From an uncultured bacterium (GTDB lineage: Bacteria > Patescibacteriota > Minisyncoccia > Phycocordibacterales > PALSA-1337), in NCBI GenBank assembly GCA_963848635.1, contig CAWKEA010000005.1, positions 15,275 through 79,274 of the forward strand: 64,000 bases of DNA, in the 5' to 3' direction. The stretch's first letter is position 1, and the number at the start of each line of letters is the position of its first letter. A program made the position numbers and the translations under genes. The notes beneath the pieces are model-generated. The model ran no database searches. It saw nothing but the letters and a program-made list of their open reading frames with translations, and was not told the DNA's origin. This document shows, one piece after another, positions 2,100 to 52,478 of the stretch.

Positions 2100-3500
2100 T
2101 TCAGATTCCACCAGTCGAGTTGTTCGACATGTACATTATATCAAGCCGAATATTTATTCGTCAAGATATTGAATAACCCCACCCATCTTTGCACTTTTCT
2201 GGTAATTGATTCACATAATACTCGGAAGAGGTCAGCACTTCAAGCGGCACCAATTTGTTCTTGAAAGCACAGTGCACTCTTTTGGTGTTGTAGAAGGTCA
2301 AATATTCCTTCAACTTTTCATTAAATTTGGTAGTGTCATCAAAGAGTATGTTGACATTGTAATCAACGAACTCTTCTTGGATGGTACCATTGAAGCTCTC
2401 ACAGTGAGCATTCATCTTGGGAGTCTTCGGATATGTGTGGTAGTGAGTGATGTTGTTCTTTGTAAGTAAGGCGTCAAGATGTAGCTTGAATTCTGATCCG
2501 TTGTCAGTCAGTACATTCTTGATTTCATACGGAAACATCTGCATGATCAGGTAGAAGAAATGAGCAAACGTCTTTGAAGAATGTGACTTGGTAGCGATTG
2601 CGTAGGTAGTGCGTGAATATATGTCGATTGCAGTTAAAATGTACATCCTACGACCATTTCTCTGTTTCTCAATGGTATCGAGTGCCAAAACGTGTCCGGG
2701 GTACGTTGGCACCAAGTCCTTGGGCTTTCTAAGCACTTTCTTGCGATTGGTTTTCTTGATCTTGCCAAAGTGTGACACTTTCTGCGGGAATGTCCGGAGG
2801 CCACCCATGTCAGTGATTAGTCTTTCAATAGTTGATGGTTTTGGACACTTCTCAATTCCAAAAGCATCACAGAAGTCCAGAAGCAACGGGTATAGCTTTT
2901 CTGCGCCGAGGTTTGGATGATCGACCCGTAACTTCCGAAGCTCCTCAAGTATGCGGAAATCCCAAGTTCTTTTTCTCTTCTTTTGAGGTGTTCTTTTGCC
3001 AGGATTCAAGGCTTCGACTTTGCCATTGCCTTCATCCAATTTCTTCTTCCAATTGAACAAAGTCCGTCTGGAAACCTTGAATGCGTCCATGGCTGAATCG
3101 AGCCCATACTTACCCCAATGTATTAATATTTTGTACCTTTCCTGCGCTTGTTTGGTGATCATATGATGATACCTTACCGCGTAGTTCAAGACTGTGACAA
3201 ATCCTTTAATTCCCCTGCGTTTTGATTGTATTCTCATGTTGCGCCCATGTAATTAATGAGTGCAATATGTATCTGAGGTTAGTCAGATATAATCCATTTA
3301 GTGGACCTGGAGAGATTTGCACTCTCGGGCAAGCGGATAATAAGCCGTTGCCACAACTCTGTCATGCCCACAGTGATGATTTTTCATCACTGAACACAAT
3401 TATAAAGACTAGACTATTAAGAAAAGTTAAATTTTCCTAAAGATTTCTTAATAAAAAAGGTGCACCCAAGCATCGTTTCCTGAAACGAGCATATACAGCG
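2100..3500 (-). mobile_element. IS481-like insertion sequence; boundaries approximate
   Basis: AT-rich block, visibly lower GC than the flanks, containing a single transposase ORF. I could not find terminal inverted repeats by eye, so the ends are uncertain. Confidence 0.5.
2161..3237 (-). CDS. DDE transposase, IS481/IS3-superfamily (rve integrase core)
   Basis: N-terminal HTH-like region and a DDE core with DNGSEF and a downstream CESFNGT motif; this is the IS3/IS481 rve signature. 358 aa. Confidence 0.85.
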   Translation of the reverse strand: MRIQSKRRGIKGFVTVLNYAVRYHHMITKQAQERYKILIHWGKYGLDSAMDAFKVSRRTLFNWKKKLDEGNGKVEALNPGKRTPQKKRKRTWDFRILEELRKLRVDHPNLGAEKLYPLLLDFCDAFGIEKCPKPSTIERLITDMGGLRTFPQKVSHFGKIKKTNRKKVLRKPKDLVPTYPGHVLALDTIEKQRNGRRMYILTAIDIYSRTTYAIATKSHSSKTFAHFFYLIMQMFPYEIKNVLTDNGSEFKLHLDALLTKNNITHYHTYPKTPKMNAHCESFNGTIQEEFVDYNVNILFDDTTKFNEKLKEYLTFYNTKRVHCAFKNKLVPLEVLTSSEYYVNQLPEKCKDGWGYSIS

Positions 3501-8722: not shown

Positions 8723-9853
8723 ATGACAATTCTCTATAATTTCAGCATGCAGTTGACCATACAGCCCGATGGAAAGGCATTTGAGGCACTCGATGCGATC
8801 ATCGAATATGCCGTCGTTCACGGCGCTTCTGATGTCCATATCGATCCTGAAAAGGATGCTCTTGCCGTGCGCATGAGGATCGACGGCGTCTTGATACATT
8901 GCGCCACGGTCTCTTTGTCGTTCCACCAGGAACTGATCGCACGGATCAAGGTTCTGGCAAGATTGAGGCCTGACATACATCTGCTCGCCCAGGATGGCCG
9001 GTTTTCATATTCAAAAGAATCGTTTGGCGCTGTCGTCGATATGCGAGTTTCGATCATTCCGACTCATTTCGGCGAAAACGCGGTCATAAGGGTCTTGGCA
9101 GGCGGTAAAAATACGACAAGGCTCTCGTCTCTCGGCTTTTCACCTGACAACGAATCTACCATCCGTGAAGCGCTGACTCGCACTCAAGGCATGATACTCG
9201 TCACTGGACCGACCGGCAGTGGCAAAACGTCGACAATGTATGCCATGCTCCGAGAGCTTGTTTCTGAACAGCTATCCATCGTCACTCTCGAAGATCCGAT
9301 CGAGTATGCCATTCCCGGCATCCGGCAGATAGCTGTCGACCACCGCTATGGGATCAATTTTTCCAACGGTTTGCGCTCGCTCGTGCGCCAAGATCCAGAT
9401 GTCATAATGGTCGGCGAGATCCGCGACAAAGAGACGGCGCAGATAGCCACAAACATCGCTCTAACCGGCCACCTAATTATTTCAACGCTTCATACTGCCA
9501 ATGCTCTCGGCTCTGTAGTTCGTTTGGCGGATCTTGGCATTGATCCATATCTTATCGCGCACACTCTCTCTATCGTCATCGCTCAGCGCCTTATCCGCAC
9601 GCTGTGTATGACCTGCGACGGCATTGGGTGTCCCAGCTGCTTCCAAAAAGGCTACCGCGGCAGAACGGTGATAGCCGAAGTGCTTGAGATCGACGACGAG
9701 ATGCGCGCTTATATCTCGATAAAGATGCCCTTGGCTGAAATTGCCCGCCATGCTCGCGTCAAGGGCATGGTCACCATGCGCGATCATGCCGCGGAAAAAA
9801 TCGATTGGGGAGCGACAACCCTTGAAGAAGTCAAACGAGTATTGGATCTGTAA
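8723..9853 (+). CDS. pilB: type IV pilus / type II secretion assembly ATPase (PilB/GspE family, short form)
   Basis: Walker A GPTGSGKTST, Asp box, His box (TLHTANA) and a C-terminal tetracysteine CMTCDGIGCPSC. Confidence 0.85.
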   Translation: MTILYNFSMQLTIQPDGKAFEALDAIIEYAVVHGASDVHIDPEKDALAVRMRIDGVLIHCATVSLSFHQELIARIKVLARLRPDIHLLAQDGRFSYSKESFGAVVDMRVSIIPTHFGENAVIRVLAGGKNTTRLSSLGFSPDNESTIREALTRTQGMILVTGPTGSGKTSTMYAMLRELVSEQLSIVTLEDPIEYAIPGIRQIAVDHRYGINFSNGLRSLVRQDPDVIMVGEIRDKETAQIATNIALTGHLIISTLHTANALGSVVRLADLGIDPYLIAHTLSIVIAQRLIRTLCMTCDGIGCPSCFQKGYRGRTVIAEVLEIDDEMRAYISIKMPLAEIARHARVKGMVTMRDHAAEKIDWGATTLEEVKRVLDL

Positions 9854-9863
9854 GATATCGGGC

Positions 9864-10994
9864 ATGCAGAGCGCTCGTCATGATTATTACCGATCGATGA
9901 CGCGCGCAAATTGCACTATGTTAAAAAATCTCATCAAAAAAATAAAATGTCCCAGACTCTCCATGAAGGAACAAGCGCTTTTTGCCGATCGGCTTGCTCT
10001 CCTCCTCGGCGTATCGATGTCATTGCCAGAATCAATAGCGGCATTGCGGCATACTTTTGGCGCGCGGCGAGAATTATCTTTGATTGACCTTCAGCATCGC
10101 CTTACCGACGGCTCGAGCTTTGAATCAGCCCTCCATGCTTCTCGTCTTGGCTTTTCCCGCATGATCATCCTGGCCGCACGAATCGGTGAACGGAGTGGCA
10201 CCCTTTCTGATTCGCTTCATGCGGCCGCCGGACGGATCGAGCGCGGCCGTGGCGTCAAAAGCGCCTTGATCTCGACGCTGACATACCCAATCATCATTTT
10301 TATTGTCTCATCTGCCGTCATTGCTTTTCTTGTCTTCTTCATAATGCCGAGGATTATGCCGACCATCCAAAGCCTTCATGTGCCGTTGCCGGCTGTCACT
10401 GTATTTTTCATATCGATATCGCATTTTCTCGCCAGCGAATGGTGGAAAATCGCTCTAGAAGCCATTTTGGCCGCGTATCTTATTTTTTTCTTTTACAAGA
10501 AATCTGTCTCATCCAGGAATTTTATCCAGAGATGCATCTTATGGATCCCGATCGTCTCAAAGGCCATCCGTGCCCACACGCTCTCTGAAATATTCGATAC
10601 GATTTCGACGCTTGTTTCAGCAGGCTGTCCTTTCATTGAAGCCGCGGCTGAAACTGGTCATTCCATCAGCCTTATCCCGTACCAAAAGGCCTTGTCGGAT
10701 GCCGTCGCTCATATGCAAAGCGGATCTGGATTTTCATCCATGCTGAGGCGTCGTGCACGCCTATTTCCTTCTCTTGCAGTCGATAGCATCGCTATCGGTG
10801 AACAGACAGGGAACATGGAGATCGTCTTGCCGCAGATAAGCGATCACTATAGCCGCGAGTTGCAGTCTGCGTTGGCTGGTTTTTCAAGGCTGATCGAGCC
10901 CGCCCTCATGATCGCCGTCGGAATCATCGTCGGCGCCGCGGCCTTATCGATCGTCCTGCCAATATATGAGATTTCACAGCATCTGTCTGGATAA
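9864..10994 (+). CDS. pilC: type IV pilus platform protein (PilC/GspF family)
   Basis: Two GspF-like repeats with three TM segments, directly downstream of pilB. The start is taken at the ATG at 9864, just after the pilB stop. Confidence 0.8.
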   Translation: MQSARHDYYRSMTRANCTMLKNLIKKIKCPRLSMKEQALFADRLALLLGVSMSLPESIAALRHTFGARRELSLIDLQHRLTDGSSFESALHASRLGFSRMIILAARIGERSGTLSDSLHAAAGRIERGRGVKSALISTLTYPIIIFIVSSAVIAFLVFFIMPRIMPTIQSLHVPLPAVTVFFISISHFLASEWWKIALEAILAAYLIFFFYKKSVSSRNFIQRCILWIPIVSKAIRAHTLSEIFDTISTLVSAGCPFIEAAAETGHSISLIPYQKALSDAVAHMQSGSGFSSMLRRRARLFPSLAVDSIAIGEQTGNMEIVLPQISDHYSRELQSALAGFSRLIEPALMIAVGIIVGAAALSIVLPIYEISQHLSG

Positions 10995-10999
10995 CAGCA

Positions 11000-12334
11000 A
11001 TGTCGAAATATGCACCATTATCAGGTTTTCTTGTTCTAGAAGCGATGATCGCGCTCGCCTTGTTTTCTATATGCGTCAGTTCGACGATAGTCCTGTCATG
11101 GAGCTCGCACAGGATGTTCGATGAGGCATATGAAAGACAGGCGCTTCTAAGCTCGCTCTCGTCAGTGATAGCAGACCCATCACGCATTGATCCTGAATCT
11201 GTTCGTTACACATACGGAAACGACGCGACAATCACGACGATCTCTTCTTCTACAGATCAGATCGCTGTCGGAAGCACCTCCATCTCATTTTCCATCCTCG
11301 AGCCTGACACTTTTTCCGCATACGGCAAAGACACATGTCCGCCCACCCTCGATTTTTTGAACCAGATATCATTGCCGATAACTGTTCCTCTTCCGATATC
11401 GCCAGCAAATCTCATCACAGGCTTGTCCGTAAAAGACGGTTTTGCCTATATATCGACTAACTCAAAAAACGCCACTGACCCTGATCTATTCATCATCGAT
11501 GTACGCGACCTGGAGAGCCCAAAGATCGTCTCGTCATTGGACACCGGTCCAGGTCTCAATGCTCTTGCTGTCGCCGGACCATATGTATTCGGGGCAAATG
11601 AGAGTTCGACTGACCAGCTCCAGGTCATTGATATCCATGATCGTTCTCACCCTATGCTCGTGGCTCAGGCAAAAGTGCCGCTCGATATCTCTTCGTCCTC
11701 CGCGCCCTATGGCTCAGCTGTCTTCTATGACAAAGGCTTCATCTACCTCGGCACCGAGAAAGGCGACAGCCCAGAATTCACGATATGGAACGTCGCCGAT
11801 CCTATCCATCCGACCCTGGCAGGCAGATATGAGATAGGGAACAAGGTCGAAAAAATAGCCGTCCAAGGCACCCGCGCATATGTTGGTGGTACGGGTTCCA
11901 ATCAGCTCATTTTTTTCGATATTTCCAACCCGACGAATCCTTCGCTCGTCGACATTGCGGCGTTGCCGGGCTTTCAGACCCAGAGCGCCGAGGCGCTCGA
12001 CGTGTTCGAAGGTGATACAGCGCTCGGCCGCGACACAGGCGGCTTCGACAATAAGGCTAATCCAGAGTTCATCCTCTTTGATACGAATATGATGGAAAAA
12101 AGCTCATTCGATGAACCCGGCGGTATCTACGGCATCATCGCACGACCGCCATATTTTATCGTCTTGACTCGCCGCTCATCAGATCAATTGCGCTTTGACA
12201 GCGAAAATGGCACGACCAGCGACGCGTACGACATTCCCGGTTCTCCTGTCGCATTATCGTGCGATTGGGGAAACATATATATTGCATCGAACAACCAACC
12301 GACTATCTCTTTGATCAAAGATCTCCATGATTAA
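11000..12334 (+). CDS. prepilin-like protein with a large beta-propeller-like (LVIVD-type repeat) domain
   Basis: N-terminus LSG/FLVLEAMIALALF is a class III (type IV prepilin) signal with Gly at -1 and Glu at +5, followed by a hydrophobic helix. The C-terminal 400 aa contain repeated ..AV.G.YV.G.....L.V.D.. blocks reminiscent of LVIVD propeller repeats. Confidence 0.55.
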   Translation: MSKYAPLSGFLVLEAMIALALFSICVSSTIVLSWSSHRMFDEAYERQALLSSLSSVIADPSRIDPESVRYTYGNDATITTISSSTDQIAVGSTSISFSILEPDTFSAYGKDTCPPTLDFLNQISLPITVPLPISPANLITGLSVKDGFAYISTNSKNATDPDLFIIDVRDLESPKIVSSLDTGPGLNALAVAGPYVFGANESSTDQLQVIDIHDRSHPMLVAQAKVPLDISSSSAPYGSAVFYDKGFIYLGTEKGDSPEFTIWNVADPIHPTLAGRYEIGNKVEKIAVQGTRAYVGGTGSNQLIFFDISNPTNPSLVDIAALPGFQTQSAEALDVFEGDTALGRDTGGFDNKANPEFILFDTNMMEKSSFDEPGGIYGIIARPPYFIVLTRRSSDQLRFDSENGTTSDAYDIPGSPVALSCDWGNIYIASNNQPTISLIKDLHD

Positions 12335-15052: not shown

Positions 15053-15904
15053 CTATTTTATCGCAATACCATATGCCGGCGCTTCCTCCGCGTATAGCTC
15101 TTTGACTGTTCCCATGCTGATATATTGGTTGTATATGCGGACTTGGTCTATCGAACCAGTGAAATTCTCTCCTGTGCCGTCAGATCTTTGGCCAATGTAG
15201 CCAGCATAGGTGTTATTAGTTGAAATGCCAAAGCTCGATGGCGATGTGTAGGCGTTTGGAACTATTTTTCCATTCACATAGAATGTACCGGCATCGGTCG
15301 CTCCGTTTTTTGTATAGACTATCTGGGTCCATGTGTTGACAGGCACATAACCGCCCCCTGTACAAGCAACGTACACACCAGGCTTGTATACCTCGATGCT
15401 TCCGTATGCATAGCAACTGACGGAAGACGAGTTGATTCCAAAGGTAAATTCTCTGCTTATATTTTGGATCGAAAAGATAGTTTGGCGGTCGTATGCTGGA
15501 TCAGTGGTCTTTACCCATGCCGAGATAGTGAATACATCGCTATTTTGTCCAATAGTATTGAGTGAATTAGGTACGTTAATAATCGCGTACCCATTTACTC
15601 CGTTGAATGCAAGCGCGCTTCCTGAGACACCCGGCGTCCATGTCGCTCCTGACGCAGATAACACTGCGTTGTTATTGTTCCCTGATGTGTCATATGCTGT
15701 CGTGCCGCTATTTTCATCAAAATTCCACAGAGCTACCGCATTGGCGCCAAGAGAATGGTAGACAGCAGTATCAAACTCCAGAGAGGCGGCAGTCATTCCT
15801 TTTGTCCGCGCGTTACTGAGTGCCGCGAGAATAATGCTCGACAAAAGACCTATTATTGAGATGACGACGAGAAGCTCGATGAGGGTAAAGCCGCGCGATT
15901 TCAT
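15053..15904 (-). CDS. type IV pilin with C-terminal LamG/concanavalin-like lectin domain
   Basis: N-terminus MKSRG/FTLIELLVVISIIGLLSSIILAAL is a canonical prepilin. The C-terminal 250 aa are rich in G/T/S beta-strand sequence with the LamG-like pattern (WNFDENSG.., TISAWVKT). Confidence 0.7.
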   Translation of the reverse strand: MKSRGFTLIELLVVISIIGLLSSIILAALSNARTKGMTAASLEFDTAVYHSLGANAVALWNFDENSGTTAYDTSGNNNNAVLSASGATWTPGVSGSALAFNGVNGYAIINVPNSLNTIGQNSDVFTISAWVKTTDPAYDRQTIFSIQNISREFTFGINSSSVSCYAYGSIEVYKPGVYVACTGGGYVPVNTWTQIVYTKNGATDAGTFYVNGKIVPNAYTSPSSFGISTNNTYAGYIGQRSDGTGENFTGSIDQVRIYNQYISMGTVKELYAEEAPAYGIAIK

Positions 15905-15911
15905 AGTTTTT

Positions 15912-16919
15912 TTATAGTTCTTTCGGTCTATAATCAACCGGTGCTTTCTTTAGCCAATCTTCCAGCTCTTGGCGAGATAGAAGGCCTTCTTGGGCGCCGA
16001 TATATTGCACGACCGAAGCAGAATTAATGGGAGCCCAGGCAAGAGCCTCGAGCGACGTTTTTCCGAGAGCGAGCGCGGCGACGAAAGTTGAAGAAAATGC
16101 GTCTCCCGCACCAGTGCGCTCATAAGGCGGTTTCGGATCGGGGTAGAGCGGCATGAGATATAACTTGCCCTGGTCGAAAAGATATGCACCATTTGGTCCA
16201 TCGGTGAGAAGCACTATTTTGGGACCGAGAGCCGCAAGCCGCTCGCACAGGTTTTTTATGTCACGACTGCCTTCTGACGCGCCGAGTATCCTCTGTGCCT
16301 CCTCGACATTCACTGCAAAGACCTCCGTACGCGCATAGATCCTTTTTAATTTTTCTATGCCAAGCTCCATCTGAAACGTTCCGGGCTGAAAAGCGAGCTT
16401 GACATCGCTATTTCTTTCAAGATACTTCGCGATTTCGTCATGAAAGGGTGCAGAGGATACCCCCATCGATGACAGATAGAGCCATTTCGGCGCGGAAAAT
16501 TTCGGCAGAGAATAATCGAAATCTTCATGTTTGACAAGGATCGTCCGTTCGGCTCCATACCAAAGGACGTAATGGTAGTTGGTTTTTTTGCCTTTTTGCT
16601 CGGCTATAAAATCCGTCGAGACTTCGTTCGATCGAAGGGTGCGCTCGCATTCCTTGCCGCGTTCGTCTTTGCCGACGTTCGTCACAAGCGCCGCCGGAAG
16701 CCCGAGCCGAGCCGCCGCCACAGCGGCATTTGCCGCGTTGCCGACGCCTGCGATGACTGTATCGAATTCAAATGGGATCTTGTCGCCGAATTTCATGCAT
16801 ATCTCGCAGTCCTTGTCGTCAAGCCTGCAATTGACGTGAGCATCTTTTAATTTGACGAACGCGTCGATGACGACATCGCCTATAGCGATAAAATCGCTTT
16901 TTTTCTTGAAAATAGACAT
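15912..16919 (-). CDS. PfkB-family carbohydrate/nucleoside kinase
   Basis: N-terminal GDVVID and a C-terminal GAGDAF anion-hole motif typical of ribokinase-like kinases. Confidence 0.8.
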   Translation of the reverse strand: MSIFKKKSDFIAIGDVVIDAFVKLKDAHVNCRLDDKDCEICMKFGDKIPFEFDTVIAGVGNAANAAVAAARLGLPAALVTNVGKDERGKECERTLRSNEVSTDFIAEQKGKKTNYHYVLWYGAERTILVKHEDFDYSLPKFSAPKWLYLSSMGVSSAPFHDEIAKYLERNSDVKLAFQPGTFQMELGIEKLKRIYARTEVFAVNVEEAQRILGASEGSRDIKNLCERLAALGPKIVLLTDGPNGAYLFDQGKLYLMPLYPDPKPPYERTGAGDAFSSTFVAALALGKTSLEALAWAPINSASVVQYIGAQEGLLSRQELEDWLKKAPVDYRPKEL

Positions 16920-24271: not shown

Positions 24272-27200
24272 ATGAAAACGATCGACCCTATTCTTGGTTT
24301 TGACAGAATTAATCTTATCGGAACTAAAAAAGCACGGTGGAGTACGATCGCACTATTCACGTTCATGTTTTTGGTGGGAGGTTTTCTTTTTGATATCAAT
24401 GGGGCCCAAGCGGCCACGAGTATATATTATTCAGTTGGTTCCAGCAATACTACCGATTACAAGACTGGCTCTCCCACAATTTCCATCGATGGAAGTGGCA
24501 ATGCAACATTTTCAGTCGCCCAGACAAATAATTCGATGGGTGTCGGCGATGTTATCAATTATAACGGCCAACAAGCCTATGTCACAGCCAAGACATCGAC
24601 CTCTATTTGGACAGTCGAAACTGCCATTGGCGCTTTGCCTCCGGCAACATCACCCGTACCTGTAACATCGATTACGCATGTTTTTAGTACTCTCAAAAGC
24701 GCACTGGGCGATGGGATTGCAGGCAATGTCACATCATCAAATTTCCTCAATACCTCCGACCTCGTAGCTAACAACTATGTCCTTAACGTTTCGCTTTATA
24801 ATGACACAGGAACACCAGAGACTGGAGATGGTAATATGACAATTGGAGGTTTTACGACGAGCGCCATCAACCATATATACATATACACTCCAACATCGAC
24901 AACCACCCAAGTGAACGCTAGCCAGCGACATAAAGGTGTATTTAATACTGCGATTGGCTATGCGCTTCAGGTCCCGGTCAATGCATATATTCTGACTATC
25001 ACCAATCCATATGTGACGATCGATGGCGTTCAAATAAATAATACCAACGGTCGCGGGTCGCTTTCATTGAACAACAATACTACTCTATCCAATGACATCA
25101 TTTTGGGTTCTGGGGATTATACACTCATATATGCCAGAGTGAATGACGTCGTGATGTATAATAATGTGATACAAGGCCCCAATACTATCGCCATTGATGC
25201 GGAGACAGCAGGTCAAACTGACTGGATATACAACAACACTTTTTATAACGTAGGCACAGCTATAGCGCTCAGCAATTGCAGTTTTGGTACGCAAATCAAA
25301 TTGATAAACAATATTTTTGCGTCAACAACTGCTCCCATGTCAGGTGCAGGCACCTGTGCGGCAGCGGGTTCAGATTATAACTCTACCGACGCAAGCTCAT
25401 TGGATTATTCTGTGACAGGAGGAGGCAATGTTCATGACCGCGTCAATCAGACATTTAATTTTTATGATCTTGCGAATAGCGATTTCGATCTGACGATATC
25501 AGATACAGGCGCCCTTGACCTCGGTACATCATCGCCATCGAATGATCCGGTGGTTCCATTTTCAACAGATATCTTAGGCACCAATCGTCCACAAGGGCCT
25601 GCATGGGATATCGGCGCGTTCGAGTACTTGCCATCGACATATGCAACCACTCCACCAGGTCTTTCCGGCGGTTCACCGGGTGGACAAATAGCCTACGGCA
25701 CAGCATCCCTTACTGTTTCCGTTAACACTAATGAGAATGCCACTTGCAAGTATGATGTTGTGGCTGGCACAGCGTACGCGTCTATGCCATACACATTCAC
25801 CAGTACCGGCGGAACGACTCACAGTTCAGCAATTTCTGGTCTACAAAATGGTCACGTATACAACTATTATGTCCGATGCCAAGACGCTTCTGGCAACACT
25901 AACATCAATGATTATGTGATTTCGTTCGAAGTGAATCAGGGCGTCGACGGTATCGTCTATGCTACGAGCTGTTCAAAGGAGGATACTAACTATGCCATGT
26001 CATTCGTCAATGCCGGCGACACGCTCAAGATCCCTGCGGGTGTTTGCGGCGGATACTCGTCATCCTTTGGTTTGGGGATATACAAAGCCATAACAGTTCA
26101 AGGAGCTGGAGAAGGGCAAACCATCATTGAAATAGCCTCGACTACGTCTGGAACATATTTTAATGGTGCCATCATACCTATTTATGCAGCTGCTACTGTC
26201 AGAGATTTGACCATCGAGACTGATACTTCTGGAAATAGCGGAACAGCCTTTACCGTAAATGCCAGCGGTTTTCGTATCACCAATGTCCAATATATTGACC
26301 AGACTCCCGCAGACACTGGTTATTTCGTCGGAGTCAGATCGGGCGTATATGGTCTTATCGATCACGATAGCGTAACTGGTGGAGCGGGTAACGATGAGCT
26401 TATTGTCGTCTACGGCCCTACAGACTCTTGGCAGACGCCGAATACCATGGGTAAATCTGAAGCACTTTATATCGAGGACTCTACGTTCAACAATAGCGGA
26501 TATGTTACTGATTGCAACTCAAATAGCCGATGTGTGGTTCGCCATAATGTCATCACTGGGCCTATAAAAGTAGACGGTCACGGCAAGGCAAGCGATACGC
26601 CTCCACGTGGCGTGAGACAATACGAGACATATGACAATACATGGACAAGCAGTGCGACCGCGTGGGCCGCAATAGAGATGCGAGGCGGTACGGGTATTAT
26701 ATTTGGTAATAAAGTGACGAATCAATCGCCTGGTGCAAATGCAGGATGGTTCTTTCTCACTGATTATGCGTACGGCGCGGCATGGCCAAACTTTGGTAGC
26801 GTATATCAATGTCTTAATAATTATCCCGTAGATGATCAGATCGGTGTCGGCGAAGACGCCAAGGTAGCCGCTAGCGAGCCATACTATATCTGGGGCAATA
26901 CTTTTGGTGGTTCTGCCTGGACGAGATCATTCAAGGCGATTCCTCCCACAAGTGTCAGCGGTTGTTCGGTGACGTTCACTGAAAGTCAAGTTATACAGTC
27001 TAACCGTGATTTTTACGCTGATGCAGGTTTTGATACGAATACTGGTTTGACCAGCGGTCCATTCTCATCTATTCCTTCGACGTGTACGATAGGATTTGGT
27101 TACTGGGCTACCGATCGAGGAGGGGACTGGGATGCATCTATTGGGACATCGAGCGCATCGAACGATGGCAGTCTGTATAAATGCACATCTACTAATACAT

Positions 27201-29425
27201 GGACTGATTCATATACGCCCTATGCATATCCGGATTACCTTACTGCTACTTCGACCACAGGAACTGGCCTTGTCGATATAGGAGCAGGGGCAAGAATGTT
27301 CGGCAATGGCATGTTTTATGGCCTCGCGACGTCGTCTGCATCAGGCGTATTTGCGAATATAGCAGTTTTACCAGCCATCAGCACTCCAGATGTCTGGGTT
27401 GATCTGTCGATATCGGCTTGGAATAAAACCGGTACAAGAGAAAAAACATGGACAGAAAGCTCTTGGAGCATGGGAACTACATCATCAAACCACACAATCG
27501 GGGATCTTGCCAGTAATACTGCGTACAAGATCACAATAGATGGCATGATTGCTTCAACCACCACAGCCGGTCCTGATTGCATTTCAGGCATCTGTACCTC
27601 GGATTCCTCTGGAAAGATATATTTCAACTATTCGGGAGGATATTCAACGCATACATTTGACGTATCGCCTTATGTTAACGGATCAATCACACTGTCCACA
27701 CTCCTTACCCCCGCTTTCTCTAGTATCACCGTTACAAGCGTCACAGCCTCAAGCACTATCACTGCAGGTGGCGGAGCTTCATCGACTGTAGAAGGTTTTA
27801 ACTACGGGACTACAAGCGCATATGGCCTAACTGCTTCCACAACAGGCACTTTCGGCATCGGTAATTTCACTCAAAATATAACAGGATTAGCGTGTAATAC
27901 TCCATATCATGTCCAGGCATTTTCCATTAATTCTGCGGGGGTTGGCATCTCATCTGATGCGACGTTCACTACGAGCGCGTGTGCAGTCACTTATACTCTT
28001 TCGTACACAGCAGGCAGTAATGGAACGCTCTCAGGCTCATCGACTCAGGTCGTACCGGGAAACGCAAACGGTACAGCTGTTACTGCACTACCGAACTCAG
28101 GATACTACTTTGTTAATTGGTCAGATGGTTCAACAACAAATCCTCGCAGTGATAGCAACGTCATTGCCAATGTGGCAGTCACGGCCAATTTTTCCTTGAT
28201 AGCGACCGTTCCGGTTCTTTCAACCCTCGCCGCGAGCGGCGTTTCCGCATCGAACGCCACTCTGAACGCGCATATTCTATCGACAGGCGGAGCTAACGCA
28301 ACGCAGTCTGGATTCGCATATGGCACAGTATCAGATCTTTCAACAGTAATCGCTACGACAACCCTAGGAGCTCAAATAGGTCCCGCAACCTTCAACCAAA
28401 CCTTTACCGACCTCACTCCTAACCTCACCTATTATTTCCGCGCATACGCAGTGAACTCTGCGGGAACGACGATGGGCTCAATCCTTTCCTTTATCACAAA
28501 CAACAATTCAGTATATGCCGACGTGGGAGGCACTGTCACCGGCCTTGCAGGCACTCTCGTGCTCCAAGACAACTCTACTGACAATCTTTCGCTTACTTCG
28601 AATGGATCGTTTAGCTTTGCCACTCCTCTTGTCAATAATTCCTCGTATAGCGCCACTGTTCTCACTCAACCATCTGGACAAACATGCTCCGTATCAAACG
28701 GATCCGGAACAGTCTCGGGGATCGCTGTGACAGGGATCACTGTTGTCTGTGCAGATAATCAGGTTACTAATCCAATTGTATATTCAAATGGCGGTGGCGG
28801 TGGGGGTGGCGGTGGCGGCGGAAGCGTCTCTCCAACAGTCCTTTTGCCGATTCTTGCTACAAGTTCCACCGCAAAGACATATATCGATTCGTTTATCACT
28901 CCGACTTATGCCGGTGCAATAGGGAATAATGTCCGATCCCTCCAGAAATTCCTTATCGCACAGGGATTGCTTGATCCTTTTGACGTAACAGGATTCTTCG
29001 GGCCATTGACCAAGGCCGCCGTTATCAAGTTCCAGATTAAAAATAGAATTATCGCTTCCGCTTTAAGTCCCGGCGCTGGGGCAGTGGGACCGAGGACTAT
29101 TGCGGCGATCAATTCGCTCATTTCGAGCACTGCTCTTGTTGCAACGACGACACCGCCTCAAGCCAGCGTTTCTTCCATAAGATTAATATTCAACGCAAAT
29201 CTGTCCTTGGGTTCAATCGGAGCAGAAGTTAAAGCACTCCAGGAATACCTCAATGCTAAAGGCTACAATGTCGCTTATACAGGGGTTGGTTCGCCAGGAA
29301 AGGAAACTACCGAGTTTGGATATGCGACACGAGCAGCGCTCATCAGATTCCAGAATGCGCACGGAATTTCTGCCTCAGGAGATTTTGGACCGATAACAAG
29401 AGCGTATATAAAAAATTTCGGATAA
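24272..29425 (+). CDS. giant cell-surface protein (1717 aa): N-terminal TM/signal, right-handed beta-helix-like region, Fn3/Ig-like repeats, poly-Gly linker, two C-terminal peptidoglycan-binding repeats
   Basis: N-terminal hydrophobic segment; NxxN/NN-rich beta-helix-like repeats (NNTFYNVGTAIALSNC, IINNIFAS); several 90-100 aa T/S-rich Ig-like modules; an 11-residue Gly run at about 28790-28825; two PG_binding_1-like repeats at the C-terminus (..LQKFLIAQGLL....GFFGPLTKAAVIKFQ and ..LQEYLNAKGY....FGYATRAALIRFQ). Confidence 0.8.
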   Translation: MKTIDPILGFDRINLIGTKKARWSTIALFTFMFLVGGFLFDINGAQAATSIYYSVGSSNTTDYKTGSPTISIDGSGNATFSVAQTNNSMGVGDVINYNGQQAYVTAKTSTSIWTVETAIGALPPATSPVPVTSITHVFSTLKSALGDGIAGNVTSSNFLNTSDLVANNYVLNVSLYNDTGTPETGDGNMTIGGFTTSAINHIYIYTPTSTTTQVNASQRHKGVFNTAIGYALQVPVNAYILTITNPYVTIDGVQINNTNGRGSLSLNNNTTLSNDIILGSGDYTLIYARVNDVVMYNNVIQGPNTIAIDAETAGQTDWIYNNTFYNVGTAIALSNCSFGTQIKLINNIFASTTAPMSGAGTCAAAGSDYNSTDASSLDYSVTGGGNVHDRVNQTFNFYDLANSDFDLTISDTGALDLGTSSPSNDPVVPFSTDILGTNRPQGPAWDIGAFEYLPSTYATTPPGLSGGSPGGQIAYGTASLTVSVNTNENATCKYDVVAGTAYASMPYTFTSTGGTTHSSAISGLQNGHVYNYYVRCQDASGNTNINDYVISFEVNQGVDGIVYATSCSKEDTNYAMSFVNAGDTLKIPAGVCGGYSSSFGLGIYKAITVQGAGEGQTIIEIASTTSGTYFNGAIIPIYAAATVRDLTIETDTSGNSGTAFTVNASGFRITNVQYIDQTPADTGYFVGVRSGVYGLIDHDSVTGGAGNDELIVVYGPTDSWQTPNTMGKSEALYIEDSTFNNSGYVTDCNSNSRCVVRHNVITGPIKVDGHGKASDTPPRGVRQYETYDNTWTSSATAWAAIEMRGGTGIIFGNKVTNQSPGANAGWFFLTDYAYGAAWPNFGSVYQCLNNYPVDDQIGVGEDAKVAASEPYYIWGNTFGGSAWTRSFKAIPPTSVSGCSVTFTESQVIQSNRDFYADAGFDTNTGLTSGPFSSIPSTCTIGFGYWATDRGGDWDASIGTSSASNDGSLYKCTSTNTWTDSYTPYAYPDYLTATSTTGTGLVDIGAGARMFGNGMFYGLATSSASGVFANIAVLPAISTPDVWVDLSISAWNKTGTREKTWTESSWSMGTTSSNHTIGDLASNTAYKITIDGMIASTTTAGPDCISGICTSDSSGKIYFNYSGGYSTHTFDVSPYVNGSITLSTLLTPAFSSITVTSVTASSTITAGGGASSTVEGFNYGTTSAYGLTASTTGTFGIGNFTQNITGLACNTPYHVQAFSINSAGVGISSDATFTTSACAVTYTLSYTAGSNGTLSGSSTQVVPGNANGTAVTALPNSGYYFVNWSDGSTTNPRSDSNVIANVAVTANFSLIATVPVLSTLAASGVSASNATLNAHILSTGGANATQSGFAYGTVSDLSTVIATTTLGAQIGPATFNQTFTDLTPNLTYYFRAYAVNSAGTTMGSILSFITNNNSVYADVGGTVTGLAGTLVLQDNSTDNLSLTSNGSFSFATPLVNNSSYSATVLTQPSGQTCSVSNGSGTVSGIAVTGITVVCADNQVTNPIVYSNGGGGGGGGGGGSVSPTVLLPILATSSTAKTYIDSFITPTYAGAIGNNVRSLQKFLIAQGLLDPFDVTGFFGPLTKAAVIKFQIKNRIIASALSPGAGAVGPRTIAAINSLISSTALVATTTPPQASVSSIRLIFNANLSLGSIGAEVKALQEYLNAKGYNVAYTGVGSPGKETTEFGYATRAALIRFQNAHGISASGDFGPITRAYIKNFG

Positions 29426-47203: not shown

Positions 47204-47364
47204 TACAAGACGCTACTTTCTTTTTGAATCGTATGATCATACGATTCGGCTGGCATCAAAAGAATTATACGGCTATGATTCGTGAAAAATCGTATGATTC
47301 TACGACTCAAAATACCTTCGTTTTGAAAGAGCATACTGATCCCCCGTCTTGAATTCCGCACATC

Positions 47365-47392
47365 AAAAAAGCCCGATCATTGGGGCTTTTTT
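47365..47392. terminator. bidirectional rho-independent terminator between convergent rplI and rpmA
   Basis: aaaaaa-gccc-gatcatt-ggggc-tttttt has an A-tract on one side and a T-tract on the other. Confidence 0.6.
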
Positions 47393-47423
47393 GATTTTCT
47401 TACTAGAAATTTTGTTCACTCAA

Positions 47424-48035: not shown

Positions 48036-48524
48036 ATGAAAGTAACCATTATGATCGAACTTACAACCAGCATAGCTTTCCTTGTATCGTCCATATACGG
48101 CTCCGGTTCAGCAAGTACCGCTGTTGCAAGCACGACCAGTGCAGCAATTGCCTCTACGACAGCCGATTCAATAGCTACGACAACCCAAGAAACAGTCATG
48201 GACCGTAGCGCTGTGGAGGCATATATCAAAGCAGAATACACAGATACGCCTATATTGATCGCTATAGCCCAGTGCGAATCGAATTTCAGGCAATTCAACC
48301 CGGACGGCACTGTTGTCCGAGGAAAGATTGATGATCACGATGTCGGCGTCATGCAGATCAATGAGACATATTGGCTTCCAAAGTCAAAATCGCTCGGCGA
48401 TGACATATATACGATTGAAGGCAATGTAGCCTATGCCAAATACTTGTATGCAAAAAACGGCACGGATCCTTGGAATTCATCGGCAAAATGTTGGAGCCAG
48501 AGCGCACCAATAGCCGAGAAGTAA
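48036..48524 (+). CDS. small secreted lytic transglycosylase (SLT/lysozyme-like domain)
   Basis: N-terminal hydrophobic/Ser-Thr-rich region, then AQCESNF (catalytic Glu-Ser), GVMQIN and AYAKYLY, which are hallmarks of family 1 lytic transglycosylases. Confidence 0.6.
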   Translation: MKVTIMIELTTSIAFLVSSIYGSGSASTAVASTTSAAIASTTADSIATTTQETVMDRSAVEAYIKAEYTDTPILIAIAQCESNFRQFNPDGTVVRGKIDDHDVGVMQINETYWLPKSKSLGDDIYTIEGNVAYAKYLYAKNGTDPWNSSAKCWSQSAPIAEK

Positions 48525-49562: not shown

Positions 49563-49676
49563 AAGCCTAGGAAGATTTATATTTTGTCGATCCGAATTTT
49601 TTTTCACAACCACTAAATTGTAGCATAGGGCAGGGCAATCATTGATAATTAAAAAGGCCATCCCTTTATATCCTAT

Positions 49677-49717
49677 GTCGCACAATATAGATTGTTGGTA
49701 GGGTGTTTATATGCTGT
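49677..49717 (+). repeat. direct repeat copy 1 (about 40 bp), immediately upstream of the M23 peptidase gene
   Basis: gtcgcacaatatagattgttggtagggtgtttatatgctgt is near-identical to copy 2 at 51713-51752. Confidence 0.8.
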
Positions 49718-49731
49718 TGAGAGTGTTAGTG

Positions 49732-50130
49732 CTACGCGCTTATTATTATCTTTGAAATAGTAGACTTGATTCTTTTTTCGTAGCTTGATTCAAGTTTCTC
49801 AATCTCTGCGTAATACTCATCCCAAATCTTATTTCGTGCATCATAATCCGCACGATCAACCGTAGCTAATTTTTCGTCTAAAACTTTATCAAGCGAGTCT
49901 TCTTGTAATTTTATTTCTTTATCAAGCTCTGATGACAATGATTCAAAATCAGCAGTGGCTTTTTCGTATTTATCTCCATAAGTATTTATTTTTTCAATCA
50001 AAAAATCTTCAAAAACACCTTGTACTTCCGGAATAGATACTCCTTTATTTAACGCTTCAATCAACTGACGTTTTTTATCAGTTTCGATGAAAGAAATGTC
50101 TATATAATTAGCTAATTGGTCTTTATTCAT
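49732..50130 (-). CDS. hypothetical coiled-coil protein
   Basis: A 132-aa K/E/D-rich ORF inside the AT-rich cassette. Confidence 0.4.
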   Translation of the reverse strand: MNKDQLANYIDISFIETDKKRQLIEALNKGVSIPEVQGVFEDFLIEKINTYGDKYEKATADFESLSSELDKEIKLQEDSLDKVLDEKLATVDRADYDARNKIWDEYYAEIEKLESSYEKRIKSTISKIIISA

Positions 50131-50134
50131 AAAA

Positions 50135-50980
50135 TTATGTTACGGCTTCCGCAAACGCATTTGCACCGCTCAAAGTTGTTCGCACAGTGTTAAACAAAAA
50201 CTTACCTCCTTTTGTAAGAGTCTTTGCGGCGTATTTGGTTCCTTCCCAACCAACTTTCGCGGCACCTGCGATACTTGGATCTCTGGCAAATCTATAGCCA
50301 GAACCCACAAAATCTCCGAGAGGCTTACCAAAAACGGTTTTTAATGTTTCGACACCGCTTTTCTTGAAACTTTCCATTGAATTGTCGAATTTTAATTTTG
50401 ATTCAAAACGGCGCTCATGTTTTTCAAACATATCATGTTCAAGTAGTGCTTGGCCTATATCCCCTCCCGAGTCTGGATCAAGAAGAGCTGACATTATATC
50501 GGGATTATTGGCTACCTTTGGATCATTGCGGAATTTTTCCAATAAAGCATCAAAGTTTTTTACCCCCTCGGCTGAATCTCTTAGTACAGCTTGTTTCGGC
50601 TTCTTTTTGTAATTTTGCTGATAATATTGCTCGACTGCTTGTTGATCTTGGGGTGTCGTGTTTACAAATTGTTTTGGTTGAGTCAAGGCTCTTTGTTTAG
50701 CGGTTTTCTTTAACATATCGATGCCCGCACCACCGGTAAGTTCTCTCAATGCGGCTTCAAACGATTTCATGCCTCCAGATCCTCGTTCAAATGCTTTGCG
50801 TGAACCGACCTCGTTTTTGGCGTATTGAAGGTACTCCATAAAAACCCTTTTTTGAGCTTGATCGGGCGGTATATTGTATTTTTGGGCATAAGCTTGAATC
50901 TTCTCTTTAAATTGAGAACCCTCGTCCGTTCCGATGATTTTTTTGCCCAAATCCTTTATGGCTTCAAACGATTTACTCAT
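50135..50980 (-). CDS. hypothetical protein
   Basis: A K/Q-rich soluble ORF of about 280 aa inside the AT-rich cassette. No family recognised. Confidence 0.45.
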   Translation of the reverse strand: MSKSFEAIKDLGKKIIGTDEGSQFKEKIQAYAQKYNIPPDQAQKRVFMEYLQYAKNEVGSRKAFERGSGGMKSFEAALRELTGGAGIDMLKKTAKQRALTQPKQFVNTTPQDQQAVEQYYQQNYKKKPKQAVLRDSAEGVKNFDALLEKFRNDPKVANNPDIMSALLDPDSGGDIGQALLEHDMFEKHERRFESKLKFDNSMESFKKSGVETLKTVFGKPLGDFVGSGYRFARDPSIAGAAKVGWEGTKYAAKTLTKGGKFLFNTVRTTLSGANAFAEAVT

Positions 50981-51094
50981 AGGGTAAATTATAGCTACTT
51001 TAGAGATATTAGCAACAATAAGCACGCTGGTCGTTTTAGATTATAAATGTTAATATTTGTAGTATTAATAAGTAGTGAAAATATATTTAATAAT

Positions 51095-51262
51095 ATGAGA
51101 AATATTAATTTTGAAACACCGAGTCCTGAAGTTAAAGAAGCGACTGAAAAAGCAGAAAAAGAACGCGAGGAGGAACATGTAAAGAATCGAATGGGAAGCA
51201 TTCTCGTTGAGAAAGACGGTAAGCTTAAGAGGCTCGATGGTAAGGAAATTGAGGAGAAATAA
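51095..51262 (+). CDS. hypothetical small acidic protein
   Basis: A 56-aa ORF (internal Met of a longer ORF), rich in E/K. Confidence 0.2.
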   Translation: MRNINFETPSPEVKEATEKAEKEREEEHVKNRMGSILVEKDGKLKRLDGKEIEEK

Positions 51263-51314
51263 TTCTTTTATATAAAAATTAAGCGAGTAGTTGTGAGCTA
51301 CTCGCAAATAGGGG

Positions 51315-51569
51315 TTAAGGTTTTTGTTTTTTCTTCTTTTGGCCGCACGCTTCTGACAGGCCATGGAAGATGTCCGCGAGGATTTTGAATATGTGCATCA
51401 GAATCCACCGCACGATACTTGTGAGTTGTTTAAACTCCCAAGCGACTATTTTGTTTGCCTTGTCCGCTTTGCCTCCGCCAACGATCAAGCCTATTCCATA
51501 CGACATGACCATGATGACTAAGACGAAGCTGATAAGCTGCGCAAAGAACTGACCAAATGTAGTGTTCAT
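51315..51569 (-). CDS. hypothetical small membrane protein
   Basis: An 84-aa ORF with two TM helices and a Lys-rich tail. It lies directly downstream of direct repeat copy 2. Confidence 0.4.
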   Translation of the reverse strand: MNTTFGQFFAQLISFVLVIMVMSYGIGLIVGGGKADKANKIVAWEFKQLTSIVRWILMHIFKILADIFHGLSEACGQKKKKQKP

Positions 51570-51712
51570 CTGCCACAGAGTATAGCACAGCTTTGTTTTT
51601 AAGTCAAGACCTTGAAAATCAACTTTTTACTTATCCCCCACTCCCCCATTGACGTATAAGAAAAACTGTACGACACTGGAATACATAGGACTTATCTTGT
51701 TATTCTGGCGTT

Positions 51713-51752
51713 GTCACACAAGTATGATTGTTGGTAAGGTGTTTATATGCTG
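51713..51752 (+). repeat. direct repeat copy 2
   Basis: gtcacacaagtatgattgttggtaaggtgtttatatgctgt has 1 mismatch in the 28-bp core relative to copy 1. Confidence 0.8.
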
Positions 51753-51767
51753 TACAGACGTATTTAT

Positions 51768-51806
51768 ATAATAGAAAATCCCGGTCTGTGGTAAGGCCGG
51801 GATTTG
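51768..51806 (-). terminator. putative rho-independent terminator (minus strand)
   Basis: On the minus strand: aaatcccgg-ccttaccacaga-ccgggattt followed by tctatt. Confidence 0.4.
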
Positions 51807-51833
51807 AACAAATATTGACATTCATTGTCGTGG

Positions 51834-52169
51834 TCAGGGAAAAATGGCAAAGCCCTTTGATCTTACTCTATGAATAATCTTTGTCTTGTATTCAACTGCA
51901 AACCATAAACGGTCTTTCGAGGCGATTAAGTTCTTTAATTTAAAGTCCGTAGGAAATGCATCTTGTGAGCCAGTCTGGCCATGGATATAGACAGGTTCTC
52001 CTTCATAGGCAACGGTTTGACCATAATCGTCATCCACATACGTTTGCCTCGATACTCTATATCGAGTGTCGGAGCACTTGGAATATATCCAGCAAATAAT
52101 GTCGGCGCAATGAATTGATTGGCATCGCCACAGATAATGATGGAGTGAGGATCGATACCCCGTAAACAT
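51834..52169 (-). CDS. hypothetical protein
   Basis: A 111-aa ORF followed by the terminator-like hairpin. No family recognised. Confidence 0.3.
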   Translation of the reverse strand: MFTGYRSSLHHYLWRCQSIHCADIICWIYSKCSDTRYRVSRQTYVDDDYGQTVAYEGEPVYIHGQTGSQDAFPTDFKLKNLIASKDRLWFAVEYKTKIIHRVRSKGFAIFP

Positions 52170-52172
52170 CCT

Positions 52173-52478
52173 TTATTGAGGACTAGGCAATTGATTACCG
52201 TTTGTATTTGGAATCGGCATCTGTCCGTTCTTGATATTTTCAAGATTGTTGAGAGCCGGCGTCCAGATGTCAGTGACGAAGATATTCCAAAGATATTCTG
52301 CCGGTGCCCGGAGATAGGTGTCCCAAATGTTCACTGCCCCTGTCCAAATATATGAAATGTTGTCCTGTGTCGTCGGATTCTGCACTGCCTGCCGCACGCT
52401 GATGCCGTAATAGCCGAGAACTATGAGGGCTATGAGGATGAGTATGAGCAATTTGATCAGGCCCCTGTTGCTTTTCAT
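52173..52478 (-). CDS. hypothetical membrane-anchored protein
   Basis: N-terminal TM helix (LIKLLILILIALIVLGYY) and a Trp-rich extracytoplasmic part. Confidence 0.4.
   Translation of the reverse strand: MKSNRGLIKLLILILIALIVLGYYGISVRQAVQNPTTQDNISYIWTGAVNIWDTYLRAPAEYLWNIFVTDIWTPALNNLENIKNGQMPIPNTNGNQLPSPQ

Follow-up and report, generated by a model that had tools for sequence, protein, structure and literature searches.

A strain-variable gene cassette without an integrase, bracketed by dif-like direct repeats, in a Patescibacteria genome

Bacterial dif sites are the targets of Xer-type tyrosine recombinases, which resolve chromosome dimers. Such sites span about 28 bp, with two 11-bp arms in partial dyad symmetry around a center of 6 to 8 bp; they are AT-rich and intergenic, and the XerD arm is usually the better conserved of the two. 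Here, we analyze a locus in a 64-kb stretch of DNA (the window; 64,000 nucleotides of contig CAWKEA010000005.1) from a tiny, Saccharibacteria-like member of the Patescibacteria, in which a strain-variable cassette without an integrase lies between two direct repeats resembling a dif site. Among the closest described systems are the integrative mobile elements that exploit Xer (IMEXs), such as VGJphi, CTXphi, and TLCphi of Vibrio cholerae, which have no integrase of their own, occur in arrays and with turnover at the site, and on integration at dif become flanked by dif-like direct repeats, of which one is functional and the other hybrid; the attP of VGJphi has four mismatches with dif in the center, on the XerD side (PMC5357621). 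The dif site of Legionella was found from the att duplication of the element LME-1, which comprises one intact and one modified dif, the modified copy stabilizing the insert (PMC9765430). Small gene modules bounded by XerC/XerD-type sites (pdif modules) are part of what has been described from Acinetobacter (PMC7399989). A literature search found no dif described for Saccharibacteria or for Patescibacteria, the candidate phyla radiation (CPR).

A repeat search of the 47-54 kb interval of the window found one long direct-repeat family, with copies at 49676-49722 and 51712-51758 (47 nt, 83% identity ungapped, spacing 2,036 bp). In register, 49675-49717 and 51711-51753 are identical at 36 of 43 positions, which bears out the original prediction, made for this region before the present analysis, of two direct copies of about 40 bp lying some 2.04 kb apart. 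The copies have exact shared stretches of 11 and 16 nt and a 27-nt near-identical stretch. The 28-nt repeat core, GATTGTTGGTARGGTGTTTATATGCTGT, occurs exactly twice in the window, even when three mismatches are allowed, and shuffled sequences gave no occurrence; the repeat pair is real, with no such pair expected from chance. Between the two copies, the 1,989 bp have a GC content of 38.2%, compared with a window mean of 48.6% (standard deviation 3.1%, 2-kb windows). This segment ranks 10th lowest of 1,241 such windows, and the lowest ones all overlap it, which makes it the compositional minimum of the whole stretch; the windowed-GC check thus upheld the AT-richer character that had been noted by eye. 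Copy 1 lies 112 nt ahead of the ATG of an M23 peptidase gene and copy 2 lies 142 nt ahead of the ATG of an 84-aa small membrane protein gene, both on the minus strand and both as described in the prediction.

Copy 1 (49675-49702, minus strand) has the layout of an intact 28-bp dif-like site, CCTACCAACAA / TCTATA / TTGTGCGACAT, that is, a XerC-like arm, a 6-bp center, and a XerD-like arm (intact-site string CCTACCAACAATCTATATTGTGCGACAT). Between 26 and 30 nt of the site are invariant in five lineages, namely the window, L002/L013, L011, L012, and L028 (L numbers denote fetched loci), where neighboring coding DNA is 73%-80% identical and the immediate flanks cannot be aligned; CTATGTCGCACAATATAGATTGTTGGTA is unchanged throughout the alignment of the five. 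What adjoins the site differs by lineage (cassette B, a 518-aa open reading frame [ORF], M23 present or absent, or a 344-aa gene). Against L002, homology stops 7 nt beyond copy 1, and a 37-nt block is identical while the sequence on either side of it is unalignable. A pattern derived from this block, CYTACCAACAATCNNNNTTGTGNGNCA, was scanned through 241 million metagenome records and returned three contigs with one copy each, all at this locus (L013, which belongs to the L002 lineage, L011, and L012). L028, whose M23 gene is 75% identical to that of the window, begins with the site. An initial reading of the repeat as private to this genome was dropped; the exact core was absent from all fetched loci, and a relaxed pattern then showed conservation, of the repeat's other half only.

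L011 and L012 have a single copy of the site and neither the cassette nor M23. There the order is terminator, site, and 3′ end of a convergent gene with an SLT-type transglycosylase match, with about 35 nt between the terminator and the site, as in the window. In the distant L009, a related sequence occupies the same convergent junction between the SLT gene and a small membrane protein (TM) gene. Because the site lies exactly between two convergent 3′ ends in L011, L012, and L009, with no downstream gene, the conserved site cannot be a promoter. The XerD-like arm is the invariant one (10 of 11 positions are kept even in L009), and the XerC-like arm varies in its outer bases (CC/CT/AT). The flank on the XerD side, AGGAT, is common to copy 1, L012, and L013 and is not found at copy 2. 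The condition that the original prediction named as arguing against a mobile origin came out in favor of mobility: in the window and the metagenome records scanned, the repeat did not recur as a generic motif, and some relatives lack the cassette at this locus.

The anatomy of the site is that of a 28-bp, 11-6-11 sequence with an inner dyad (ACAA/TTGT), 39% GC against a background of 48.6%, and an intergenic position. Its arms are dyad-symmetric at 5 of 11 positions overall, and known dif sites score 6 of 11 by the same count. In the same register, it matches the dif of Bacillus subtilis at 18 of 28 positions and that of Escherichia coli at 17 of 28, scores that only 4 and 10, respectively, of the 127,946 28-mers in the window reach. 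Up to 48.5 kb, the plus strand carries about 77% of the coding sequence, whereas between 48.6 and 63.3 kb the minus strand carries 100% of it, and the site lies at this sharpest orientation switch of the window. One intact and one hybrid copy are present in the window, and one copy per contig is present in the relatives. Membership of the dif class is supported on anatomy, conservation, and polarity, and copy 1 is most likely the conserved chromosomal site of the lineage, its dif. We infer this identity, and the action of Xer recombinases on the site, from sequence.

Copy 2 (51711-51738, minus strand; CTTACCAACAA / TCATAC / TTGTGTGACAA) appears to be a hybrid pseudo-site. Compared with copy 1, it keeps 10 of 11 positions of the XerC-like arm, 2 of 6 positions of the center (only the two XerC-proximal bases), and 9 of 11 positions of the XerD-like arm. 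L002 has a second, weaker site upstream of its own cassette, ACAAGCAACAA-ATATAC-TTGTGCGGCAA-CG, and shares with copy 2 the derived ..ATAC center, the ..CAA arm end, and the trailing CG. Since these derived bases are shared, the center and XerD-like arm of copy 2 are probably element-borne and homologous in both lineages, and copy 2 looks as a hybrid site would be expected to look after integration. Past the XerC-like arm, both copies continue into the same 15-nt flank (GTGTTTATATGCTGT on the plus strand; features at 49703-49717 and 51739-51753, minus strand), to which L012 is similar in the alignment of sites (11/15) and L002 and L011 are not.

Between the repeats are the four unrecognizable ORFs of the original prediction, two of which differ slightly in size from what had been given (281 and 55 aa rather than 280 and 56 aa). 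On the minus strand, these are a 132-aa acidic helical protein gene (49732-50130), the 281-aa gene for a soluble all-helical protein (50135-50980, from its ATG), and the 84-aa gene, whose product has a basic C-terminus (51315-51569); a 55-aa acidic protein gene (51095-51262, plus strand) is divergent from the 281-aa gene. None of the four had a significant match in Pfam, PHROG, NCBIfam, PADLOC, or PDB sequences, and no recombinase domain was found in them in Pfam, PHROGs, NCBIfam, or PADLOC. The whole strain-variable segment extends over 49701-52167 (no strand assigned), as delimited by the divergence of L025 and L026 and by the ends of Logan contigs. L025 (ENA) and L026 (JGI) are 99.4% identical to positions 53763-52168 of the window (GluRS and TM genes), diverge completely from 52168, 5 nt after the TM stop codon, and carry another cassette, which includes a small Cys-rich ORF. 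The ends of two Logan contigs obtained from one sample fall precisely at 52168 (L027) and at 49700 (L001), the latter being the base ahead of the sole position at which the XerC-like arms of the copies differ (G/A); these ends fit a mixed population differing across 49701-52167. A degenerate third site at the 52168 boundary was considered and rejected (10-12 of 22 matches, which is chance level).

Other relatives differ in the same interval. In L012, a 518-aa orphan ORF (164-1720) with no Pfam, NCBIfam, or PADLOC match stands at the cassette position beside the site. The interval in L002 contains only the 84-, 281-, and 132-aa genes, to which the window adds the 55-aa gene and a probable frameshifted ORF with its terminator (51834-52172). 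Between the window and L002, the cassette is 89%-92% identical and the flanking core genes 74%-77%, a pattern like that of horizontal gene transfer; because the cassette exceeds its flanks, recent exchange of the cassette is probable. One alternative in the original prediction, that the repeats are attL/attR-like scars of an inserted accessory element, is therefore sustained by the single site without a cassette in L011 and L012, the other cassette in L025 and L026, the excess identity in L002, and the occurrence of the 281/132 gene pair elsewhere (see below). Very probably, the repeats represent a duplicated recombination site on either side of an accessory cassette.

As for how the cassette arrived, we consider it moderately probable that a nonautonomous element was inserted at dif by Xer-type recombinases of the host, in an IMEX-like manner. 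A small circular DNA without an integrase, carrying a mimic of dif, would recombine with the chromosomal dif, and strands would be exchanged where the XerC-like arm meets the central region. Copy 1 would then combine the XerC-like arm of the element with the native center and native XerD-like arm, giving an intact dif beside the M23 and SLT genes, and copy 2 would combine the native XerC-like arm with the center and XerD-like arm of the element. The mismatched center of copy 2 would hinder re-excision and lock the cassette in. Under this model, the empty site would read ACAGCATATAAACAC-CTTACCAACAA-TCTATA-TTGTGCGACAT-AGGATA, and the circle junction would run from the stop codon of the 132-aa gene through ACAGCATATAAACAC-CCTACCAACAA-TCATAC-TTGTGTGACAA-CGCCAG; we infer both the crossover point and the circular intermediate. 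The interval from the TM gene (52173-52478) to dif would be a hot spot receiving different cassettes in different strains. Its cargo here would be a self-contained, leaderless operon of the 281- and 132-aa genes, with the 55- and 84-aa genes as accessories, unrelated to the adjoining peptidoglycan hydrolases. More tentatively, and with somewhat less than even expectation, we suggest that the 28-mer may be the first recognizable dif of a Patescibacteria (Saccharibacteria-like) lineage, and that in these bacteria with reduced genomes, integrase-less cassettes of 0.5-2 kb, each with a dif mimic and a shared leader/promoter backbone, may pile up beside it through the host Xer system and form the main strain-variable hot spot; one recurrent cargo would be the 281 + 132 operon, Saccharibacteria-wide, highly mobile, and with a predicted fold not in the PDB.

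The 281-aa gene and its obligate 132-aa partner behave as a travelling unit. A 132-aa homolog lies downstream of the 281-aa gene in every recovered locus, including L014, where the pair is 30%-31% identical, and the pair occupies at least six genomic contexts. These are GluRS-TM / pair / site (window and L002); exactly between L9 and L27 in L009, which is otherwise syntenic with the window (Ctp-L9-L27-SLT); trxB followed by the 55-aa gene and the pair in L008, a Candidatus Saccharibacteria metagenome-assembled genome; miaA / pair / tRNA in L004 and L010; near DnaK in L003; and VanZ / pair / tRNA cluster in L014. IF3-L35-L20 is also listed as a neighbor of the pair. The GC content of the module is about 40% irrespective of the host background. 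In L008, the 55/281/132 module is bracketed by a perfect 17-nt direct repeat, ACGATATTTATTGCAGT (9643-9659 and 11256-11272), the first copy of which overlaps the trxB stop codon. A phage origin was rejected, as no relative of the 281-aa family was found in 2.9 million viral contigs; a scan of viral contigs with the site pattern gave one unrelated coding match, and no free form was found in viral contigs.

At the level of sequence, the locus shares with IMEXs the lack of an integrase in the cassette, the flanking by a dif-like and a hybrid site in direct orientation, a center mismatch on the XerD-proximal side, and turnover at the site, with an empty site and presence-absence polymorphism in relatives. 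In contrast to the V. cholerae IMEXs, which are filamentous phages or their satellites with replication and morphogenesis genes, the element here amounts to four small ORFs in a 2-kb cassette that lacks replication, transfer, and phage genes, has no viral relative, and is only presumed to depend on Xer. Acinetobacter pdif modules are 1-5 kb long, have no recombinase of their own, occur in many contexts, and often carry two-gene operons, and they are plasmid-borne with sites in inverted XerC-XerD / XerD-XerC order. The sites of the present cassette differ in being direct repeats, on a chromosome among core genes and at a single conserved locus, and thus do not form a pdif arrangement. Integron cassettes are likewise promoter-poor or compact orphan-gene units that gather at one site, each ending in a recombination site. 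An integron/attC model was nonetheless rejected, because the neighbors are SLT, M23, TM, and GluRS genes, neither IntI nor attI is nearby, no attC R″/R′ pair (RYYYAAC / GTTRRRY) was found, and the cassettes have their own promoters. A transposon with terminal inverted repeats was also rejected, as none were found.

Two further systems have a modified or degenerate copy of dif. The criteria applied to the present site are those by which Legionella dif was recognized from the LME-1 attachment site; the two have in common a conserved site of about 29 bp, a variable neighborhood, and duplication by a mobile element (PMC9765430). LME-1 differs in being a large phage-like element, and its dif in having perfect dyad arms, a single recombinase (XerL), and experimentally shown terminus proximity and recombination, whereas the evidence here is from sequence. 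The Gonococcal genetic island is bounded by dif and a degenerate dif (difA/difB) and is present or absent among strains (PMC5357621), in likeness to the cassette. It is, however, 57 kb long, encodes a type IV secretion system, and has a degenerate site that differs in the XerD arm, while in copy 2 the differences are mainly in the center, with milder ones in the XerD-like arm.

If the site is dif, a concrete 28-bp sequence becomes available for approaching chromosome-dimer resolution and the terminus of replication in Patescibacteria/CPR. If insertion at dif by host recombinases is correct, dif can be hijacked by cassettes that are much smaller and less complex than the phage and island IMEXs known so far, and this would explain strain-level variation in gene content in organisms with very few classical mobile elements. 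The 281/132 pair may merit attention as a conserved yet mobile unit in these epibionts, with 86 clusters and a confident AlphaFold2 (AF2) model of no known fold. The site may also serve as a landmark for locating accessory genes and for checking assemblies of these genomes.

Several observations weigh against an Xer-mediated insertion at dif. The likeness of the site to canonical dif is modest, and a few unrelated 28-mers of the window reach an equal score. No gene for Xer or another tyrosine recombinase was found by a Pfam search of about 30 ORFs and a crude motif regular expression, both confined to the 64-kb window. A minimum in cumulative GC skew at 47-51 kb traces to third codon positions, where a C>G bias goes with the orientation of the genes. 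The two copies remain identical for 15 nt outside the 28-bp site, which the model leaves unexplained, and in L002 the approximately 35 nt from the stop codon of the 132-aa gene to the site cannot be aligned with the window, although the interior aligns, and resemble the flank of L011; a simple model in which one element integrated on two occasions would not predict this junction. Because of this L002 junction and the overrunning identity, the proposed crossover point and element boundary are tentative, and a realistic alternative is that the interior underwent homologous recombination later. The copy 2 junction is present in this assembly only, with no independent contig spanning copy 2. The 17-nt repeat of L008 has an ATAA-N6-TTAT dyad yet matches known dif sites at no more than 14 of 28 positions and is not significantly dif-like; it was rejected as a second dif and kept solely as evidence of a direct-repeat-bounded module elsewhere. 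Finally, the pair also occurs at loci without a dif-like site (L003, L004/L010, L009, and L014), so other routes of movement exist.

Across the whole window, third codon positions have C3 > G3, with a skew of about -0.2 in plus-strand genes and +0.15 (top strand) in minus-strand genes. Because this third-position skew follows the coding strand, raw GC-skew curves mirror gene orientation and not replication, and GC skew was dropped as a test of the terminus. The sole integrase-like gene found in the window is an insertion sequence-type transposase (rve integrase core and HTH_32; 2161-3237, minus strand), 46 kb from the cassette and with no terminal-repeat relation to it.

The strongest of the other explanations, though in our view an unlikely one, holds that the site is not a dimer-resolution site; it would be the attB of a dedicated integrase whose gene lies on a helper element or in another part of the chromosome, with the cassette as a nonautonomous, satellite-like or cassette-like passenger mobilized in trans. 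A 27-nt near-identical direct repeat is typical of an attL/attR core, the cassette lacks an integrase, and the position of the site at the terminus is putative. Moreover, copies of the pair in L004, L010, and L014 abut tRNA 3′ ends with partial tRNA duplications, and tRNA genes are classic integrase targets. A host function nonetheless fits better with a site that is intact in lineages with other cassettes or none and that lies between convergent gene ends; the 11-6-11 register also matches dif, the XerD-like arm is the better conserved, and no integrase was found beside the site in any fetched locus. A tRNA-linked att site at this cassette was rejected, as no tRNA was found within 18 kb of it.

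The tRNA-associated loci present arrangements of their own. In L010 (11249-11311), a tRNA gene has its 3′ end no more than 5 nt downstream of the stop codon of the 132-aa gene. In L004, a degenerate copy of the tRNA 3′ end stands within 5 nt of that stop codon, and the real tRNA is 283 nt farther on (11248-11267 versus 11531-11550). On their sequences, the L004/L010 arrangement is the signature of integrase-type insertion at a tRNA. Downstream of the distant 278/138-aa pair in L014 (4741-5170), a tRNA gene has three partial copies of its 5′ half in tandem ahead of it (period about 94 nt) and a duplicate of its 3′ end behind it, which looks like another insertion hot spot. The insertion in L009 begins 20 nt past the L9 stop codon; in the window, the L9-L27 spacer (47204-47423) holds a 25-nt inverted repeat (47222-47246 / 47288-47312, 88% complementary).

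Less probable still is a hypervariable locus swapped by homologous recombination after DNA uptake, by means of conserved flanks, one consisting of the TM gene and leader and the other of the site and M23, with the repeat as a by-product such as a local duplication or gene-conversion tract. The interior identity with L002 of 89%-92% next to an unalignable junction beside the site, the identity running 15 nt past the site, and a leader common to three cargos would all suit such swapping, and the type IV pilus genes of the window could serve DNA uptake. It gives no account, however, of why copy 2 and the second site of L002 share a derived center and arm, or of an invariant 28-bp dif-like sequence across lineages, and the duplicated segment (11 and 16 nt exact) is too short for efficient RecA-dependent exchange.

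An assembly chimera, in which two alleles of the variable locus were concatenated through a shared short sequence, is very improbable. Polymorphism of the locus in near-identical strains, the breaking of short-read contigs at its borders, and the lack of an independent contig across copy 2 speak for it; the exact shared stretches are nonetheless shorter than assembler k-mers, and in the L002 lineage two sites are arranged in this way in independent assemblies from ENA, JGI, and Logan. Least tenable, and largely refuted, is the original alternative of a duplicated promoter or operator co-regulating M23 and the 84-aa protein as a lysin/holin-like or wall-remodeling module. In its favor, both copies have a minus-strand gene downstream, M23 domains are known from phage endolysins, and the 84-aa protein is small and membrane-spanning with a basic tail. 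Against it, the promoter-like elements lie outside the repeat at unequal distances (51607-51579 and near 49625), L011, L012, and L009 have the site without a downstream gene, L011 and L012 keep SLT and the site without M23 or the cassette, the 84-aa gene is limited to two lineages, and the cassette genes have no holin, PHROG-lysis, or defense match. A lysis, holin, or envelope-attack module tied to M23 and SLT is not supported either, given SLT and the site without M23 or the cassette in L011 and L012, the pair beside unrelated genes elsewhere, and no phage relative and no holin or defense match.

Nor is a phage lysis cassette of the neighboring genes with the 84-aa gene supported, since the latter lies 2 kb away from M23 under a promoter of its own. 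The neighbor's M23 domain is solid (E-value 1e-31), and the SLT match of the gene at 48036-48524 is weak (17.1 bits, below the Pfam cut-off of 21.3). The candidate promoter of M23 is an extended -10 element, TGCTACAAT, near 49625, outside the repeat. A leaderless GTG start is possible for M23 about 50 nt upstream of the ATG used (49600-49640 region). L011 and L012 keep a remnant of the M23 promoter region downstream of the site (CTGCCCTA...), and the M23 gene itself is absent.

The cassette genes carry recognizable signals of their own. The candidate promoter of the 281-aa gene (50988-51015, minus strand; TTGCTA-16-TATAAT) has a -10 box ending 7 nt ahead of the ATG, and because a TAnAAT box lies 7-9 nt ahead of the ATG in all seven pair-bearing loci, the pair operon appears to carry its own promoter, and its transcript is probably leaderless. 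The 84-aa gene has a promoter-like sequence at 51579-51607 (minus strand; TTGACT-17-TATACT, with TG ahead of the -10 box) and is followed by a terminator-like hairpin (51283-51305, minus strand), both conserved in L002; high identity with L002 begins right at this promoter, at 51608. Upstream of it is a conserved "leader" of about 55 nt (51617-51671, minus strand; GTTTTTCTTATAsGTCAAyrGGGGAG...), with homologous blocks ahead of three cargos (that of the window, the Cys-rich ORF of L025/L026, and the 518-aa ORF of L012). The leader also aligns with the second site of L002, and it is possibly a decayed half-site or a shared cassette backbone. A permissive Rfam scan of 47-53 kb gave only chance-level matches, with no RNA family in the repeat or leader.

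Homologs of the cassette proteins differ widely in their spread. The 281-aa protein has four clusters above 60% identity among 5.8e9 proteins, and a profile search of 1.84e9 representatives found 86 clusters, all about 280 aa; it appears to found a family without a database match, for which the AF2 model is confident and the predicted fold is not in the PDB. Compared with L002, codon changes are 49 synonymous to 9 non-synonymous in the 281-aa gene and 36 to 14 in the 132-aa gene, which indicates that both are under purifying selection. The 55-aa protein has a 72% identical homolog in the same divergent position in L008 and is absent from the L002 version of the cassette. For the 84-aa protein, only one other cluster was found (93% identity, L002 lineage), placing the gene in two lineages, and its single PHROG match is to a family of unknown function (E-value 7e-4). 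An exact 15-nt repeat inside the 281-aa gene (50753-50767 / 50960-50974) encodes a duplicated KSFEA (SKSFEAIKDLG / MKSFEAALREL), which suggests that the N-terminal helix is internally duplicated.

Beyond copy 2, a probable frameshifted gene remnant (51834-52172, minus strand; overlapping ORFs at 51834-52169 and 51935-52243) lies inside the strain-variable segment and is followed by its intrinsic-terminator hairpin (51770-51806, minus strand; aaatcccgg...ccgggattt, then a T run). The remnant had no family match and is absent from L002, L012, L025, and L026. In the alternative cassette (L025 1597-1922 and the tail of L026), a TTGACA...TAGATA promoter is followed by a long 5′ untranslated region, a GAAAGGAG ribosome-binding site, and the Cys-rich ORF (MADIKMPKSIPCLFEVSWQGRCN...), and the contigs end before its stop codon. 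L002 also differs from the window by a large rearrangement that has one end near the dif-like site; in it, the block tRNA-RbfA-IF2-DUF4446-aminotransferase (window 29.6-34.1 kb) directly adjoins MurG-DUF7282-GluRS-TM-cassette (55.9 to 49.7 kb, inverted). Elsewhere in the window are a type IV pilus ATPase/platform cluster (T2SSE and T2SSF; 8723-12334, plus strand), a pilin-like protein in which an N-methylation motif is fused to a Laminin_G_3 lectin domain (15053-15937, minus strand), and a 1,717-aa surface protein with C-terminal peptidoglycan-binding domains (24272-29425, plus strand). These surface protein, pilus, and lectin-pilin genes fit an epibiont lifestyle and DNA uptake.

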